Below, piece after piece: positions 3,628 through 37,767 of a DNA stretch of 64,000 nucleotides. Position numbers and translations under genes: made by a program. Under the pieces are notes generated by a model. That model was not told the origin of the DNA. It made no database searches and saw only the letters and a program-made list of their open reading frames with translations. The DNA is from a virus. Every line of letters starts with the position of its first letter. The first letter of the stretch is position 1. The DNA lies in IMG/VR virus record IMGVR_UViG_3300042731_008016, positions 36,840 through 100,839 of that record; one strand, 5' to 3'.

Positions 3628-4278
3628 ATGCCAATATCAGAAAAAGTACAAATCAATCCCCTAAAGATCAAAGTAATTGATGTTACCATTGTTGGTACTA
3701 CTAGCATGATTCAGCATCGTTTTGGTCAAAAAGCTAGAATGCAGATTCTAGAAAAACAAATGAGAACTGCTAAAACTGGGAAAAAGCCAGTAAGAGATCC
3801 AAATAATGAATTTGAGCAAGGCTTACATGTCATGGAGGAAGGTAAGTTTACCTACACAAATAAAGAGAATCCTGGATTGGGTGAAGTTAAGTTCACTGGT
3901 AAAGTTGGATTCCCAGCCTTCGGAGTAAAAGCAGCTATAGTTGCAGCAGCTCGAAATGTAGATGATCTTCCAATGACTCTATTAAGAGGGGCTCTTTTCC
4001 TTAAAGGTGATGAAAACGATTTAATTGAGGTCGAATACAAAAAACTCATTATGAGGGAACATACTGTAGTTATTGGAAGAGGAACTACCGATCTAAGATA
4101 TCGCCCAGAATTGAGAGACTGGACAATGAAATTACAAATTGAATTTAACTCTGACGTTTTAACCGTTTCAGAAGTTATCAATCTGCTTTCAATTGCTGGA
4201 TTCAGTGTTGGTTTGGCAGAGATGAGACCTGGAAAGACTGGTGGAAACTACGGGAAATTCGAAGTAAAGGAGCAATAA
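3628..4278 (+). CDS. stand-alone Cas7/RAMP-like RNA-binding protein (Vipr-like)
   Basis: N-terminal strand IDVTIVGTTSMIQH; FPAFGVKAAIVAAAR (cf. RAMP IPGSSLKGALR); C-terminal Gly-rich loop AGFSVGLAEMRPGKTGGNYGKFEV; next to a pentamer array. Confidence 0.75.
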   Translation: MPISEKVQINPLKIKVIDVTIVGTTSMIQHRFGQKARMQILEKQMRTAKTGKKPVRDPNNEFEQGLHVMEEGKFTYTNKENPGLGEVKFTGKVGFPAFGVKAAIVAAARNVDDLPMTLLRGALFLKGDENDLIEVEYKKLIMREHTVVIGRGTTDLRYRPELRDWTMKLQIEFNSDVLTVSEVINLLSIAGFSVGLAEMRPGKTGGNYGKFEVKEQ

Positions 4279-4279
4279 A

Positions 4280-4732
4280 ATGTCTAAGCTAAAAAGAGTA
4301 GAAAAAATTGCAATTGTCTGTGAAAAGATTGAGAAAAGAGATGGTATTCTCACTCCTCAGGCGGTTGTTGATGAAGCAAAATCATCTACATGTCTAATTC
4401 ACGATATGTTTGATTGGAATGATATTAGTGCTTCAGAAAAATATCGACTCGGACAAGCTAGAAAACTAATTAAAGAAGTAACTATTACTTACGAAAACAA
4501 AGAGATTCATAGTTATCAAAATGTTTTACTTAAAATTCAAAATCAGCAAGTTCAAGGTTATGCTTCAACTGTAAACATTTTGCAAAATGATGATTTGCGA
4601 AAACAAGTAATAGCAAAAGCTTTACAAGAACTTTTGTACTGGCAAGCTGAATATGCTAAATACAAAGAATTAGCTGATTTAGTTGATGCTGATAAATTAA
4701 ACAGTCTTAGCAAAAAACATAAAACTAAATAA
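4280..4732 (+). CDS. accessory protein of the RAMP/array locus (helical, function unknown)
   Basis: LTPQAVVDEAK...HDMFDWND..A.EKYRLGQARKLI; starts 1 nt after the RAMP gene and lies just upstream of the array. Confidence 0.6.
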   Translation: MSKLKRVEKIAIVCEKIEKRDGILTPQAVVDEAKSSTCLIHDMFDWNDISASEKYRLGQARKLIKEVTITYENKEIHSYQNVLLKIQNQQVQGYASTVNILQNDDLRKQVIAKALQELLYWQAEYAKYKELADLVDADKLNSLSKKHKTK

Positions 4733-4748
4733 AAGATAAGCTCTTTAA

Positions 4749-5145
4749 CAATTAAATAAGTGACTATTGAGGCAGGTGTGTTAAGGCACGCTGAAATACG
4801 TTGTGTGTCGGTTCGGGCTGGGTGAGATAAGTCCAGATTGGGTAAGGCAGGTCAGTTAGGATTTGGTAGATAGTGCAGCGATCAGATGAGCTCTGGAGGG
4901 ATCAGGTTAGGTTTGGCAGGTAAGTTGGGTTGGGTTGGGTAGAGAATTGTTTAGTTACGGTCCGATAAGGCAGGTGTGATGGGTTTGGTTCCGATATGAT
5001 GGAGTGCGGTTAGTTCTGGCAGGTGGGTTGGGCTGAAATGTGTCGGCAATGGACAGGTGGGTTATGGCAGGTGGAATTAGTTGCGATGTGTTCGGTTCAG
5101 GAGCGTTGCGATTAGGTGGGGTTTGATGTGTCACTTATTTAATTG
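4749..5145 (+). ncRNA. putative guide-RNA array: six GGCA-delimited units of RNT-NN pentamers, closed by a 16-bp inverted repeat
   Basis: GGCAGGT at 4771, 4846, 4915, 4969, 5018, 5066; 5-nt periodicity; CAATTAAATAAGTGAC (4749-4764) / GTCACTTATTTAATTG (5130-5145); G/T-rich and no long ORF. Confidence 0.8.
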
Positions 5146-5188
5146 AAAATTGTTAAAATAAAATTGTGTTAATTAATTAGGAGTAAAT

Positions 5189-6073
5189 ATGGAAGAACAA
5201 AAAATATTAATAGTTCCAATCGGCTCTATTAGACCAGATCCAGATCAACCAAGAAAAACATTTCTTGATAGTCATATTAACAGTCTAGCTCAAAGCATAA
5301 AGCAAGAAGGATTCATAAATGAGATTGAAATTGATGTTAATAACATGATTGTTACTGGAGAATGTAGATGGAGAGCTGCTAAAAAGCTTAATCTTACTGA
5401 AGTTCCGATAAAAATAAACGAAACACAGTTCACATCGTACACCAGATTACGAAGACAAATGGCTGAGAATGCCCACCAATCTGGGGCATCATACGAAAGA
5501 GCAATGAATCCTTTGGAAATAGCTGAGGGTTACGCTAGATTAATTAAGCTTAAAACTGGAAAAGATTGTCGGCCTGGCCAACAATCTCGTGAAGAATCTT
5601 ACGGTTTAATAAAAGGGGTTGCCTCTGAATTAGGTCTCCATAGATCGACAGTTTATGAATATTTAGAATTAATTGAACAACCAAAGGAACTTAAAAAAGC
5701 AATTGTCGAGAAGGGATTGCCACGAACTTATATTAGAGAAATTGAAAAAGCTCCTGAAGAAATCAAACCAGCACTTCAGAAAAAAGCAGTTGAGGGTGGT
5801 TATTCAAGCAGAAGAGAAATCAAAGAAGACGTTAAGTTAGCCAAAGATCATCCCGATGTTGCTGAAAAAGTTATTCCTAGACAAACTCCAGAAGCAGCTA
5901 AAAAAGAATCTATTGGAGGAGGAAGGTTGCTTACTTGGATCAGTGAGGGAGTTTTGGCTTTGAGAGCAATTCCTAGAAGAGAAATAAGAATTGAAGAAAA
6001 AGGAGCAGTTGAACAACAGCTTGAATGGATAGTAGAAAAAATCAACGCTTGGCAGCGTGATGAAAAAGTCTAA
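5189..6073 (+). CDS. ParB/Spo0J-like protein with HTH
   Basis: IRPDPDQPRKTF, IVTGECRWRAAK, NPLEIAEGY, VASELGLHRSTVYEYL. Confidence 0.85.
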   Translation: MEEQKILIVPIGSIRPDPDQPRKTFLDSHINSLAQSIKQEGFINEIEIDVNNMIVTGECRWRAAKKLNLTEVPIKINETQFTSYTRLRRQMAENAHQSGASYERAMNPLEIAEGYARLIKLKTGKDCRPGQQSREESYGLIKGVASELGLHRSTVYEYLELIEQPKELKKAIVEKGLPRTYIREIEKAPEEIKPALQKKAVEGGYSSRREIKEDVKLAKDHPDVAEKVIPRQTPEAAKKESIGGGRLLTWISEGVLALRAIPRREIRIEEKGAVEQQLEWIVEKINAWQRDEKV

Positions 6074-6755: not shown

Positions 6756-6785
6756 ATGAAAATATTCGCAGTTGGAGATAAGTAA
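6756..6785 (+). pseudogene. orphan N-terminus of the metallophosphoesterase gene (MKIFAVGDK*)
   Basis: matches [10 protein letters not shown] of the ORF at 7409; cut off by the LAGLIDADG gene. Confidence 0.65.
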
Positions 6786-6786
6786 T

Positions 6787-7425
6787 ATGAAAAATATTTA
6801 TATTATTCAAGATGATAATATTAGAGTTCTTTTTGGAACTCTTTTAGGCGATGCTTATTTCCCTAAATTGGCATTTAAACAACAAAATAGAAAAATAGCA
6901 TGGGAACATACTGATAAACAAAGAGATTACGCTATTTGGAAAGCAAGAAGAATTGGATTTCAATGGAATAAATATGAAAGAAAAAGACTTGATAAAAGAA
7001 CCAATAAAACATATAAATCAATTACGATAGTATTACGGGCAAATGAATCGTTTAATAAGATTTACAAAATCTTTTGTCCAAAAAGCAAGAAGATAGTTAC
7101 AAATGATATTCTAAGTTATTTATCTAAAGAAGCTGTTGCTATTTGGTATTGTGATGATGGGAATTTATATCAAAATAAAGATACTAATCATTTAACATTA
7201 TCTATACAATCTTTTAAAAATAAACAGTTAATTATTGACTTCTTTAAAAGAAAATTTAGTGTTAATTTTAAATTAAATGATGGAGCAATTAGATTAGTTA
7301 ATAAAAACGAGATCAGAAAATTTATTGATTCAATAAAACCTTATGTTCCAATCATGATGCAATACAAAATAGATTTTGTTGATTATAAAACGTATAAAGG
7401 ACGATATTATGGTAAAGACAGATAG
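6787..7425 (+). CDS. free-standing LAGLIDADG homing endonuclease (two-motif type)
   Basis: LFGTLLGDA and [10 protein letters not shown] motifs. Confidence 0.85.
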
Positions 7426-8173
7426 AATTTTTTGCGTGGGCGACATCCATGGTTGTTACACTGAGCTAATGTTGCTCATGGAGAAGCTACCAATCAATCC
7501 AGAAAAAGACCAGGTAGTTTTCCTAGGAGACTATATTGATAGGGGACCTGATTCAAAAAAAGTTGTTGAGCAATTAATCAAGTGGAAGAAGAAATACCCC
7601 CATTGGGTATTCTTGTGTGGTAATCATGAAGATATTTTTTATGACTATTTAGTTAGAAGTGGAGCTTTGTATGGTTTTCAAAACTGGTTTGTTAATGGTG
7701 GAAAAATTACTTACCAAAATTATGGAGGCCATTTTGGAGCTAAAGTATATGACAAAGAGTTAAAAAAAGTCGTTTTTGAGGCACCTAGACCTGCCGATTT
7801 TCCCAAGGAACATCTAGATTTTCTATTTAAGGAACTTCCATTCACTTATGAGACAGAAGATTACTTTTTTGTTCATGGTGGTGTAATTCCTGAAGCTTCC
7901 CTGGAAGAAAGTAAAAAGCATTGGAAAACTATGCTGTGGGCTCGGGACGGTTTTATTGATAGTGAATACGATTGGGGGAAAAAGATTATCTTTGGTCATA
8001 CTCCAGCTTATAAAAAGGAATGGGGTGTATTTGGCCAACCAATCATTATGAAAAATAAAATAGGTCTTGATGGAGCTTGTTGCCCAGGAGCATGTAAAAA
8101 CTTAATTGCTGTTGAGCTTCCTTCAGAGAAATTCTATTTACAGGAGAATGTAACATGCAAAAAAGAAAAATAG
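7409..8173 (+). CDS. Ser/Thr protein phosphatase (calcineurin-like metallophosphoesterase)
   Basis: GDIHG, GDYIDRG, GNHE, FVHGG, FGHT. Confidence 0.92.
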
Positions 8174-17884: not shown

Positions 17885-18244
17885 ATGCCATATAAGGACA
17901 TTAAAAAACGAAGACAGAGTTCTCGAAAATACTATTATGCAAATCGAGAGAGGCTAATCGAGCAACAACGAGAGTATCGAGTAAAGTTGCGATTAGAGGT
18001 TCTTTCTCATTATAGTAATGGAGAGCCAAAATGTGCGTGTTGCAAAGAAAGCCAAATAGAATTTCTAGCAATAGACCATATCAATGGAGGTGGTACTAAG
18101 CATAGAAAAAGAATTGGCGGAGGAATGCACACCTATCTTTGGTTGAAAAAGCAAGGCTATCCGAAAGGATACAGAGTCTTATGTCATAATTGTAATCAAG
18201 CTTATGGCTTTTTCGGATACTGTCCTCACAATAAGCGGGATTAG
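17885..18244 (+). CDS. HNH homing endonuclease
   Basis: CACC....LAIDHINGGG...VLCHNCN. Confidence 0.85.
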   Translation: MPYKDIKKRRQSSRKYYYANRERLIEQQREYRVKLRLEVLSHYSNGEPKCACCKESQIEFLAIDHINGGGTKHRKRIGGGMHTYLWLKKQGYPKGYRVLCHNCNQAYGFFGYCPHNKRD

Positions 18245-18308
18245 TGTATTGGCGACACGACATCCTTCCAAGTTGTAGAAAGGGGTTCGATTCCCCTATC
18301 CCGCTCCA
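18235..18308 (+). tRNA. tRNA-Gly(UCC)
   Basis: GCGGGAT/ATCCCGC acceptor, CT-TCC-AA loop, TTCGATT T loop, TCCA end. Confidence 0.92.
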
Positions 18309-18447
18309 AACATTATGATGTTGACAATATAATGTCGAAAAAACAAACATTATAATGTTGTTATTAATAAATCTAGGAGAAAAGACCATGACTATATAGT
18401 CGCCTAACCCATTATTTTGAAGGGCGACCCCGAAGGGGGTGATAGTC

Positions 18448-18636
18448 ATGAGTACGCCTAGAAAAGGCCGAGGTAAATCTGGTAGTAGAAAATACGGTAG
18501 AAACAAGGTCAAATGTGCCCTTTACCGTGTGCAAAATCGAAGAGAGAAAAATAAATTGAGAAAGCTAAAAAAACTCTCTAAGAAACAGCCAAACAACAAA
18601 CAGATTCCAAAGCTAATCAAAAAGCTAGAAGGATAA
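18448..18636 (+). CDS. small highly basic protein
   Basis: K/R-rich 62 aa; GGGGTG SD. Confidence 0.55.
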   Translation: MSTPRKGRGKSGSRKYGRNKVKCALYRVQNRREKNKLRKLKKLSKKQPNNKQIPKLIKKLEG

Positions 18637-18691
18637 TTAAATGTTAACCGATGCTAAATACCATCATAAAAGCTACGGCATCACCTTTCAT

Positions 18692-18765
18692 GGTGACGGT
18701 AGCTTAGTGGCAAAGCACTCGGTTGTGGTCAGAGGGACGGGGGTTCGAATCCCCTCCATCACCCA
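18692..18765 (+). tRNA. tRNA-His(GUG)
   Basis: G-1; GTGACGG/CCATCAC; TT-GTG-GT loop; TTCGAAT T loop. Confidence 0.88.
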
Positions 18766-18811
18766 AAGCACATTAAATAATCAACAGAACTAATTACATC
18801 CTGCGCATTAT

Positions 18812-18882
18812 TGCGGAGTGGTGTAACGGTAGCACGCTGGGCTTTGAACCCAGAGGTCTTTGTTCGAATCAAAGCTTCGCAT
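18812..18882 (+). tRNA. tRNA-Gln(UUG)
   Basis: TGCGGAG/CTTCGCA; CTGGG-CTTTGAA-CCCAG; CTTTG-TTCGAAT-CAAAG. Confidence 0.9.
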
Positions 18883-18924
18883 CATAGAATTGACAATATA
18901 TATTTGAATTAATAAAATAGTTCA

Positions 18925-19269
18925 ATGCCACATAAAAATGTAGATGCTAGAAGAGCTTATGCTAGAGAATATTATAAAAGAAATCCACAAAGATGGATTG
19001 AAAAAAATAAAAAACGTAAAAAAGAAATATATAAATTTATAAGCGAATATAAAAGAAAAAATGGGTGTAAATTATGTGATGAGAATGAACCAGTAGCTTT
19101 AGATTTTCATCATATAAATAAAAACAAAGAAATCAATTTAGCACACGCTCAAACTAGAATGTGGGGAAAAACAAGAATTTTAAAAGAAATTAATAAATGT
19201 GTTGTATTATGTGCAAATTGTCATAGAAAAGTAGAAGCTGGAATAATAAAATTATCCAGGGAAGCATAA
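18925..19269 (+). CDS. HNH endonuclease
   Basis: CKLC....ALDFHH....KCVVLCANCHRK. Confidence 0.85.
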   Translation: MPHKNVDARRAYAREYYKRNPQRWIEKNKKRKKEIYKFISEYKRKNGCKLCDENEPVALDFHHINKNKEINLAHAQTRMWGKTRILKEINKCVVLCANCHRKVEAGIIKLSREA

Positions 19270-19328
19270 TTGGCATTTGCATCGGACTGTTAATCCGAAG
19301 ACAGAAGGTTCGAATCCTTCTCCTGGAG
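19255..19328 (+). tRNA. tRNA-Asn(GUU)
   Basis: TCCAGGG/TCCTGGA; TCGGA-CTGTTAA-TCCGA; GAAGG-TTCGAAT-CCTTC. Confidence 0.9.
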
Positions 19329-35451: not shown

Positions 35452-37767
35452 ATGGATATATTTTTCAAAAAAATTAATGCTGGAATATTAAACGATCACT
35501 TCGATCAACTCGGAGGCGGAACTGTTCACTCATTCAAATTTATCGAATACCTTAAAGAATTTTACAATTGTGATGTCTATCTTCCAAAAGAACCAAAAAG
35601 TAAATCGTGGATGCAACAAATGCTCAATATCGATACTAAGAATGTCAATTTTTATAAATACACTAAAGGTATTGGAGAAAAATATAAATATTTGTTTTTA
35701 AATATTTCTCATTGGAAAGCAGAAGAAACAGAGGCACTTAAAAAATTTATGCTTGTTTTCTTTCCACAATTTTTCTTTCCAACTTTTGATTATAAATTTT
35801 TAGCAAACTCGAAATACACAAAAGACAACATTATTAAGAGATGGCATAAACCAATTAAAGACATATTGATTGTGTACCCGCCCATAATGACTAATGAGTT
35901 TAAACCAGGTAAAAAAGAAAATATTATTCTTCATGTAAGTAGACTATCAAGCCCAAAACCAGAAGCAGATAAAGGTCACGCTCAAATGATTGAAACCTTT
36001 AAAGAAATGTATGATGCTGGAATTACTAAAAATTGGGAGTTTCATTTAGTTGGGCAAGTTCAAGATCCACAATATGTAGCACAATTGAAAATTCAGACCA
36101 AAGGATATCCAATTATATTTAACGAGGGAATTCCATTTTCTAGATTAAAGCAACTCTATGCTAAAGCAAAGATTTATTGGCACATGACAGGAATCACAAT
36201 GCCTCATGAGCCAGGAGCCCAAGAACATTTCGGAATGACAACTGTAGAAGCAATGGCAAGTGGATGTGTCCCTGTAGTATTAGCAACTGGAGGCCAACCA
36301 GAAATAGTAGATGATGGTAAAAACGGCTTTTTAGTTGAAGATACTATATCTTTACAACGGAAAACAAAGTTCTTAATTGAAGATGACAGTCATAGAGCCA
36401 GCATGTCTAAAAATTCTGTTAAAAAAGCAGCTATTTTTGATGAAAAAGAAATTAGAAAGAAATTCTGGTCAATTATTGCTGGTACAGATAAAGTTTCAAT
36501 TATTATTATTAATTGGAATAATGCAAATTACACGAGAGAATGTGTTGAAAAACTTTATGAAGTAACACCTCCAGGATTTGAATTAATCATTGTCGATAAT
36601 GCTTCTGAAGATAATTCCAAAACAGTTCTAACTCAACTAAAAAAAGACTATCCAGATATTAAGCTTAAATTCTCCAAAACAAATCGTGGGTTTGCTGGAG
36701 GTAATAATTATGCTCTTAAAGATGCTACCAGAAAATATATTTGTTACTTGAATAATGATACTCTTCCTCAATATGGGTGGCTTGAAAGAATGGTTGATGT
36801 TTTAGAAAACAATCCTAAGGCTGGTATAGTTGGAGCAAGACTTTATTTCCCAAAGAAAACAGATCAATCATGGGAAGTCCAACATGCTGGAATTTCATTT
36901 AATGCAGATTATGAACCGAAACATATCGGAAGATTTAGGCAGGATCATCAAATTAATAAAATTGGCATAGAAGAGGTTGAGGCGGTAACTGGAGCTTGTA
37001 TGTTAGTTAGAAAAAAACTAGCCAAATTTAATGAAAACTATGAGCGTGGTTATTATGAAGATATCGAATTATGCCTTGAAGCCAGGGAAGATGATTATAA
37101 AGTTTACATTAATCATGAAGCAAAATTAATTCATTATGAAGGTGCTTCTCAAAATATAGCCAAGAAAAAAGATAGCCAAAAATTTAAAGATATTACGATT
37201 AAAAACAAAGAATTGTTTCACAATAAGTGGGATAAAAAAATGAAAAAGATGTCAAAAATTTCTAAGCAGCTTGATACTGCAGGGATTCATCATGTCCAAA
37301 ATTTAGAAATTGGTGGTGGAGAAAATCCGCTTCATCCAAAATATCATCAGCTAGATATAAGACAAGTTGGTAAAGTCAAGTTTATCAACGATGCTAGATT
37401 ATTACCATTTTCATCAAACTCAATTAAGAGTATTTGTGCTTGCTATATTTTACAATGCTTTATTGAAAGCGAAGCACTAATGGCTTTAAAAGAATGGTTT
37501 AGATGTTTAAGCCCAGAAGGAAGACTTGAAATTCATGTTCCAGATTTAGATAAAGTTATGCGTATGTTTGTCAGCACTAATGAAGAAGAATATCTAAAAG
37601 AAATTTATGGTGCTCAAGAACATGTGAATGATTACTATCATCACGGCTGGGTATTTCCAACACTAGATAGATTATTAACTAAAGCTGGCTTCGTAAGAGT
37701 CACTAAAATTAAATCGCCTGCCCATAGACCAAATTCTTTGTCTATTGAGGCGTTCAAACCATTATGA
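35452..37767 (+). CDS. GT4-GT2-methyltransferase fusion protein
   Basis: EHFGMTTVEAMASG; VDNASED, YLNND, EDIELC; LEIGGG...LPFSSNS...VPD. Confidence 0.88.
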   Translation: MDIFFKKINAGILNDHFDQLGGGTVHSFKFIEYLKEFYNCDVYLPKEPKSKSWMQQMLNIDTKNVNFYKYTKGIGEKYKYLFLNISHWKAEETEALKKFMLVFFPQFFFPTFDYKFLANSKYTKDNIIKRWHKPIKDILIVYPPIMTNEFKPGKKENIILHVSRLSSPKPEADKGHAQMIETFKEMYDAGITKNWEFHLVGQVQDPQYVAQLKIQTKGYPIIFNEGIPFSRLKQLYAKAKIYWHMTGITMPHEPGAQEHFGMTTVEAMASGCVPVVLATGGQPEIVDDGKNGFLVEDTISLQRKTKFLIEDDSHRASMSKNSVKKAAIFDEKEIRKKFWSIIAGTDKVSIIIINWNNANYTRECVEKLYEVTPPGFELIIVDNASEDNSKTVLTQLKKDYPDIKLKFSKTNRGFAGGNNYALKDATRKYICYLNNDTLPQYGWLERMVDVLENNPKAGIVGARLYFPKKTDQSWEVQHAGISFNADYEPKHIGRFRQDHQINKIGIEEVEAVTGACMLVRKKLAKFNENYERGYYEDIELCLEAREDDYKVYINHEAKLIHYEGASQNIAKKKDSQKFKDITIKNKELFHNKWDKKMKKMSKISKQLDTAGIHHVQNLEIGGGENPLHPKYHQLDIRQVGKVKFINDARLLPFSSNSIKSICACYILQCFIESEALMALKEWFRCLSPEGRLEIHVPDLDKVMRMFVSTNEEEYLKEIYGAQEHVNDYYHHGWVFPTLDRLLTKAGFVRVTKIKSPAHRPNSLSIEAFKPL

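Follow-up and report, generated by a model that had tools for sequence, protein, structure and literature searches.

A phage-encoded VIPR locus with a guide that spells the KGGGEFYTPK codons of hsdM, the type I restriction-modification methylase gene

Can a short repeat block in a phage genome carry a guide against a bacterial restriction-modification gene, and by what kind of system would such a guide act? The question is raised by a block of pentamers at 4771-5129 of the DNA analysed here (the window, 64,000 nucleotides in all, positions 36,840 to 100,839 of the IMG/VR record IMGVR_UViG_3300042731_008016). The array occurs once in this 100,839-bp phage genome, which has direct terminal repeats. 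Among sequencing runs, a single one, from a wetland metagenome, contains the whole stretch and may be where this DNA came from; no RNA run was listed for it. The original prediction, made from the letters alone, was that the variable dinucleotides of the third unit, read with one skipped base after each, encode a conserved motif of HsdM, the type I restriction-modification methylase.

The array and its neighbouring genes

The features on which the analysis rests are the following.

3628..4278, + strand: vipr, encoding a 216-aa RAMP (Cas7-like) protein, from SUSP1 Vipr homology, AF2 and Foldseek, and a match to phrog_4652
4280..4732, + strand: vap-like accessory gene, 150 aa, matching phrog_15946 and found beside vipr in 79 related loci
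4744..4764, unstranded: left arm of an inverted repeat, 16 nt + 10 nt pairs, 100% complementary to 5130-5157
4771..5129, + strand: vrRNA array of six abutting units, each GGCA followed by G-n-T-N-N pentamers
4771, 4846, 4915, 4969, 5018 and 5066, + strand: starts of the array units, given by the GGCA marks
4915-4918, + strand: GGCA of unit 3, from the sequence
4919-4968, + strand: ten pentamers of unit 3, from the sequence
5130..5157, unstranded: right arm of the inverted repeat, pairing with the left arm, with 1 difference in a mangrove relative

This arrangement recalls the systems known as Viral Interference Programmable Repeat (VIPR), which comprise Vipr, vap and a vrRNA (bioRxiv 10.64898/2026.04.26.720920, 10.64898/2026.04.26.720927, 10.64898/2026.10.15.759431). 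Vipr is a small RAMP protein, vap an accessory gene, and the vrRNAs consist of 9-16 GGY/NN repeats that pair with dsDNA through the NN bases alone, every third target base being skipped; the skipped base is generally the wobble position of a codon (bioRxiv 10.64898/2026.04.26.720920). Experiments have shown that the NN bases specify the target and that DNA binding represses transcription from either strand, and satellites, prophage regulators and other VIPR systems have been reported as natural targets (bioRxiv 10.64898/2026.04.26.720920). The structural basis of VIPR (bioRxiv 10.64898/2026.04.26.720927), its role in phage-satellite competition (bioRxiv 10.64898/2026.10.15.759431) and degenerate, non-canonical repeats paired with Vipr-like proteins (bioRxiv 10.64898/2026.10.21.760802) have been described in separate preprints.

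The units of the present array hold 8-14 modules each, with the consensus G-n-T-N-N, and the block is G/T-rich. Its 5-nt period is visible in the autocorrelation of G over 4765-5129, which reaches 0.32, 0.26 and 0.16 at lags 5, 10 and 15 and is about zero or negative at the remaining lags. Position 2 of the pentamer is G in fewer than half of the modules, and slips of 1 nt occur in units 1 and 5, unit 3 being slip-free. At the gathering threshold, Rfam returned tRNAs alone and no RNA family for the array. The inverted repeat at 4744-4764 and 5130-5157 brackets the array exactly and could pair both ends of the primary transcript; a comparable repeat was not found flanking the array of the closest relative in hand, the metagenomic locus L249.

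The product of the first upstream gene matches the SUSP1 Vipr protein (PDB 36pp_D) in a single-sequence phmmer search (E=0.0016), and a profile of its 42-member family aligns with that chain at full length (E=1.5e-11; residues 3-188 of 202). The AF2 model of the 216-aa protein has a pLDDT of 90.4, and the best Foldseek matches of this predicted model are Csm3, Cmr4 and type VII Cas7, with a prob of 1.00. In the alignment, H30, E198 and R200 take the places of the SUSP1 Vipr residues in contact with G1 and Y3, and R159 takes that of the thumb residue R138; the C-terminal glycine-rich loop reads GLAEMRPGKTGGNYGKF. In SUSP1 Vipr a tryptophan (W178) stacks on G2, whereas a methionine takes its place here (G-loop codons 4198-4230) and in the closest relatives, and the replacement coincides with a degenerate second constant base (G-n-T) in this array and in that of L249. 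Among 61 arrays, the mean G2 fraction was 0.61 in 14 M-form arrays versus 0.74 in 38 W-form arrays; the ranges overlap, and the link between the residue and G2 degeneracy appears as a trend only. The protein is predicted to polymerise on the vrRNA with one protomer per pentamer.

The vap-like gene overlaps the vipr stop region (4278/4280). Its 150-aa product was modelled with a pLDDT of 91.6, and the Foldseek matches of the model are weak (E>=0.15) and mostly to winged-helix DNA-binding domains; the protein is possibly of the winged-helix type, to judge from the model, and no Pfam family was found for it.

As in published VIPR systems, a phage-encoded small RAMP homologous to SUSP1 Vipr adjoins a small accessory gene, and the tandem pentamers combine three constant and two variable bases. 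Likewise shared are the single skipped target base, aligned on the codon wobble position, and a footprint on an invariant catalytic-motif segment. Given a Vipr homologue, a pentamer vrRNA array, an adjacent vap, the 1-nt skip rule and no self-target (none at <=3 mismatches in the 100,839-bp phage genome), the array at 4771-5129 and the two genes upstream of it are identified from their sequence as a VIPR system. The studied type II systems (the SUSP1 / P. fulva clade) have a conserved 3' tail and a pseudoknot, which were not found at this locus; here the units abut with only GGCA between them, and the locus is accordingly not assigned to type II. With the tail and pseudoknot missing and the second constant base degenerate, the transfer of the published mechanism to this locus rests on homology. 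The array may be the 'staggered array' form of VIPR named in the VIPR literature.

A relation to CRISPR-Cas goes as far as the backbone. Vipr shares the RAMP fold with Class 1 effectors (Foldseek prob 1.00 to Csm3/Cmr4), and in both systems one protomer covers a fixed guide step and a thumb flips bases out at regular intervals. However, the step in Class 1 is 6 nt, of which 5 pair, versus 5 nt with 2 pairing bases here, and CRISPR guides are split by repeats of 23-55 nt, whereas the present units are split by 4 nt. No 23-55-nt direct repeats with spacers were found at the locus and no Pfam match to a Cas family among the scanned genes adjoining it; as CRISPR-Cas combines such repeats with cas1/cas2 or effector cas genes, the locus does not belong to it.

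Directly after the array lies a ParB-like gene (ParB_N + HTH_ParB, 5189-6073). It was considered as a VIPR partner, but of the related loci searched a single one had a homologue; the gene is no conserved neighbour and is taken to be a bystander. Further along the window, a LAGLIDADG endonuclease ORF (6772-7425) overlaps the start of a metallophosphatase ORF (7376-8173), four tRNA genes are clustered at 18235-19328, and the 571-aa product of 453-2168 has a von Willebrand factor A / CoxE-like domain at its C terminus.

The match of unit 3 to hsdM

Unit 3 (4915-4968, + strand) consists of GGCA, ten G-n-T-N-N pentamers (GGTAA GTTGG GTTGG GTTGG GTAGA GAATT GTTTA GTTAC GGTCC GATAA), and the next GGCA follows it directly. 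When re-read at pentamer positions 4-5, its NN pairs proved identical to those first reported and free of indels (AA GG GG GG GA TT TA AC CC AA), and taken as codon positions 1-2 they translate, as had been proposed, into [KN]GGG[DE][FL][Y*]TP[KN]. The corresponding search pattern, AANGGNGGNGGNGANTTNTANACNCCNAA, specifies 20 bases with one skipped base between pairs. It was scanned on both strands of a collection holding one genome per prokaryote species (596 Gb), in which about 1 match would be expected by chance (596 Gb x 2 strands / 4^20, all bases taken as equally frequent), and at least 120 exact loci were found. Among the matches listed, all 120 are in frame and read KGGGEFYTPK (116) or KGGGEFYTPN (4), which bears out hsdM as the proposed target. 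The skipped positions hold 107 different wobble strings among these 120 listed matches, all of them codon-phased; the suggestion of a guide that ignores the wobble base is thereby supported, and it fits the published 1-nt skip of VIPR.

The matches lie in the context GRVYEYFLGKFAxxEGKGGGEFYTPKxVVxLIAEMIEPxxGKIYDPCCGSGGMFVQ, and the ORFs that contain them match N6_Mtase with E down to 2e-115 and HsdM_N with E down to 3.5e-28. At three of these loci (L130, L159, L204), ORFs with Methylase_S (hsdS) and HSDR_N/SWI2_SNF2 (hsdR) follow downstream on the same strand. In gamma-class N6-adenine methyltransferases, the FxTP segment is situated just upstream of the AdoMet-binding DPxCGSGG motif. The match runs through all ten modules, from one GGCA mark to the next and no further, and the flanking hsdM codons (E and G before; S/C and V/I after) do not fit the adjoining modules. 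None of the ten target residues is Leu, Arg or Ser, and for each of them the first and second codon bases are fixed; the segment is therefore suited to a code that ignores the third base.

These counts bear on a reading in which the array is of a quite different nature, that is, one in which the G-n-T triplets are bound by a protein of the TRAP type with a 5-nt period, the NN bases being free spacers between them and the likeness to hsdM a product of chance. Constant bases that recur every 5 nt with variable bases between them are what such a reading would predict, but it leaves unexplained at least 120 exact in-frame matches in one gene family where about 1 is expected, as well as the 0 matches obtained with the reversed order of pairs, and the preprint experiments show that NN sets the target (bioRxiv 10.64898/2026.04.26.720920). 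It is regarded as exceedingly improbable. A TRAP-like protein-binding RNA and a centromere-like repeat, considered as identities for the array, were rejected in view of the exact in-frame matches of the NN code.

The expected enrichment over control guides was seen in each of three collections, in which the reversed-order pattern gave 0 matches versus 3 (viral contigs), 3 (401 genomes) and 8 (151 genomes) for the real one; other gap sizes had also been proposed as controls, and in the samples listed below none of the gap sizes 0, 2 and 3 exceeded the chance level. The searches were as follows.

Gap 1, exact, 401 Gammaproteobacteria: real pattern in 3 genomes (one being the seed genome, G001); reversed in 0
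Gap 1, <=2 mismatches, 151 Clostridia: real pattern in 8 genomes (one being the seed, G002), 4 of them at 0-1 mismatch; reversed in 0
Gap 2, <=2 mismatches, the same 151 Clostridia: real pattern 2 matches, both at 2 mismatches; reversed 5
Gaps 0, 2 and 3, <=2 mismatches, five genomes with one exact gap-1 match each: real 0; reversed 0
Gap 1, exact, viral contigs: real 3, all in-frame hsdM; reversed 0

The five-genome gap test is paired but pre-selected, its genomes having been picked for a gap-1 match. Five of the eight Clostridia gap-1 matches read KGGGEFYTP in phase, and four of these five differ solely in the last module.

It had been hoped that the matches would identify the host, an expectation that was not borne out. 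According to the record titles, the matches listed are spread over proteobacterial classes, Bacteroidota, Bacillota, Fusobacteria, Planctomycetes, Cyanobacteria, Desulfobacterota, Chloroflexota, Verrucomicrobia and Myxococcota; as the motif is conserved and its matches occur in so many phyla, the host is not nameable from them. The exact target is present in cultured Vibrio splendidus, Acinetobacter gandensis and Providencia heimbachae. An exact match occurs in only about 0.5% of the sampled Gammaproteobacteria, which counts against the explanation preferred here.

The distribution of matches also bears on where the natural target resides. It has to be considered that the guide is directed at an hsdM gene carried by a rival mobile element (a plasmid, island, prophage or satellite) rather than at a chromosomal host defence, which would agree with the published role of VIPR in conflicts among mobile elements, namely satellites, prophages and other VIPR systems (bioRxiv 10.64898/2026.04.26.720920, 10.64898/2026.10.15.759431). 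The three exact in-frame matches on IMG/VR viral contigs point the same way, as does one matched hsdM that lies among defence genes (GmrSD, HD) and may belong to a mobile island. However, the cellular matches number at least 120 versus 3 viral ones, homologues of this HsdM are rare in phage records (28 of 50,697, most below 60% identity), and no other unit of the array matched hsdM neighbourhoods (<=8 kb). A target on a rival element is thus thought rather unlikely, although it is the most serious of the alternatives weighed here.

Related arrays and the retention of the guide

More than 119 loci were obtained when viral contigs were scanned for the mark GGCAGGT occurring three times at intervals of 40-70 nt, and in 24 of these loci at least three GGCA-delimited units could be parsed. 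These 24 arrays consist of GGCA plus 6-14 GGYNN copies, with up to 15 consecutive units, and are much cleaner than the array studied here. A search of metagenome contigs returned 419 Vipr relatives; most of the 80 loci kept have an array just downstream, vipr, vap and array occur together in 79, and when loci are oriented by their vipr match the array lies on the vipr strand in 42 of 42 parsed arrays. Over 315 distinct guides, taken from 69 arrays, G occupies position 1 in 94% and position 2 in 72%, a pyrimidine occupies position 3 in 93%, and the usage of NN pairs resembles that of codon positions 1-2, with GA, AA and GG the commonest and CG, CC, CT and CA the rarest. The array of L249 has the same degenerate pentamer pattern as the present one.

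Cultured phages that have homologues of vipr and vap (gp51/gp52 in Saal, gp39/gp41 in UmaThurman) likewise carry arrays of the GGCA + GGYNN form:

L007:1977-2230: array of the cultured Mycobacterium phage Saal
L008:2620-2955: array of the cultured Gordonia phage UmaThurman
L009:3487-3620: array of cyanophage Cy-LDV1, GGCA + GGYNN

The UmaThurman array lies under the annotated 'hypothetical protein' gp40, so that gp40 is probably no protein gene. A blastn search of the present locus against phage records gave no match, and single-protein scans of viral contigs with vipr and vap found no relative.

The sequences of the related guides give no sign of a wider anti-restriction-modification theme. 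When the other five units of the array and 121 related guides were compared with 120 hsdM loci (<=8 kb each), no match rose above shuffled controls, and a code of the [FY][FY]TP type is absent in sense from those five units and from the 315 related guides; one guide (L294) carries such a code when read antisense. The full pattern of unit 2, for which a reading as 'LGQYF' was considered, gave no match at <=3 mismatches in 121 Bacteroidota genomes, a small sample for that reading. As a separate observation, six related guides, about three of them independent, read antisense as ..[DE]-P-P-[FL], resembling methyltransferase motif IV; they start at the + strand offsets L268:1379, L270:6336, L287:1429, L280:6230, L286:6131 and L306:2028, and two of these DPPF-like patterns gave no exact match in viral contigs.

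A closer view of how such arrays change is offered by mangrove metagenome contigs, in which a relative is about 92% identical over vipr-vap (110 differences in 1,372 bases) and encodes a Vipr protein that is 98% identical. Its array measures about 811 bases versus 352 here and shares with it only units 2 and 3 and the flanks. The unit 2 block is kept over 81 bases with 7 differences and the unit 3 block (4931-4972) is kept in register over 42 bases with 2 differences, with a net 128 extra bases between the two, a length that fits two whole units of 4+5n. The first mangrove unit differs from that of the present array but ends in the last four modules of unit 3 (TA AC CC AA). Arrays thus change by whole units, and the hsdM guide has been retained.

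This retention matters for a further alternative, according to which unit 3 is a leftover or inactive guide, poorly processed or loaded and without effect on hsdM. Several traits of the locus agree with such decay, namely the low frequency of G at pentamer position 2 (in fewer than half of the modules) in an array that has no 3' tail, the methionine in place of the G2-stacking tryptophan and the 1-nt slips in units 1 and 5. Unit 3 itself, however, is slip-free and matches at 20 of 20 bases; the same degenerate pattern is found in the closest relative in hand, L249, the mangrove relative has preserved the guide block, and degenerate VIPR repeats with Vipr-like proteins have been reported (bioRxiv 10.64898/2026.10.21.760802). 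An inactive guide is accordingly judged improbable, less so than a chance likeness to hsdM.

Proposed action on hsdM and its meaning

The explanation that we favour is that unit 3 is a guide (vrRNA) of a phage-encoded VIPR system that binds at the KGGGEFYTPK segment of hsdM and blocks transcription, which we consider likely, with good confidence. The anatomy of the locus, the SUSP1 Vipr homology and the in-frame hsdM match are observed; the pairing rule and repression through DNA binding come from the preprints, and to these we add what we infer about expression and processing, about the cell or element in which the target resides and about what the phage gains.

Under the favoured explanation, the array would be read from the + strand along with vipr and vap, and cleavage of its transcript would presumably take place at the GGCA punctuation or close to it. 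Vipr would then coat each unit with one protomer per pentamer, the protomers holding the constant G-n-T and leaving the two variable bases exposed to pair. In unit 3, the ten NN pairs would bind positions 1 and 2 of ten consecutive codons, the wobble base being flipped out. It had been stated that an RNA from the + strand would pair with the template strand, and this agrees with the sequence, as the vrRNA has the sense of the hsdM coding strand; it would thus pair with the hsdM template strand. Once bound, it would block hsdM transcription, together with that of any hsdS and hsdR genes situated downstream in the operon. What the phage would most likely achieve is to stop the cell, or a rival element inside it, from making new type I restriction enzyme. 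Silencing would leave the existing enzyme in place, and the benefit may lie in keeping type I enzyme from being replenished or in a prolonged stay within the cell, which is speculation.

Protein factors that counter type I restriction-modification are known. Ocr, ArdA and DarA/B block the existing enzyme by mimicking DNA or by shielding the DNA that enters the cell. Unit 3, as read here, would address the same defence system; whereas those proteins act on the enzyme already present, it would act on the gene and stop new synthesis alone. A counter-defence in which one vrRNA, directed at ten invariant hsdM codons, shuts off type I enzyme synthesis across phyla is proposed tentatively, as a possibility that we hold with somewhat less than even confidence. 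The absence of six-fold-degenerate amino acids from the target codons means that the guide could work across phyla whatever their codon usage.

VIPR as a system is already known (2026), but a type I restriction-modification methylase is a target class unreported in the VIPR literature searched, and no mention of vrRNA together with hsdM or restriction-modification was found in that search. Among natural targets, the reports name satellites, prophage regulators and other VIPR systems, whereas the gene matched here is a type I methylase gene found in many phyla. If the proposal is true, the hsdM target would have little room for escape mutations, and this would be the first RNA-guided anti-restriction mechanism as well as the first VIPR guide against a cellular immune gene, not a rival mobile element. 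Unit 3 offers a concrete and easily tested case of a known guide with a known exact target. Taken together, a natural guide that spells the most conserved segment of hsdM suggests that the gapped VIPR code may also be turned against host immunity, its disregard of the wobble base giving one guide reach across many phyla.
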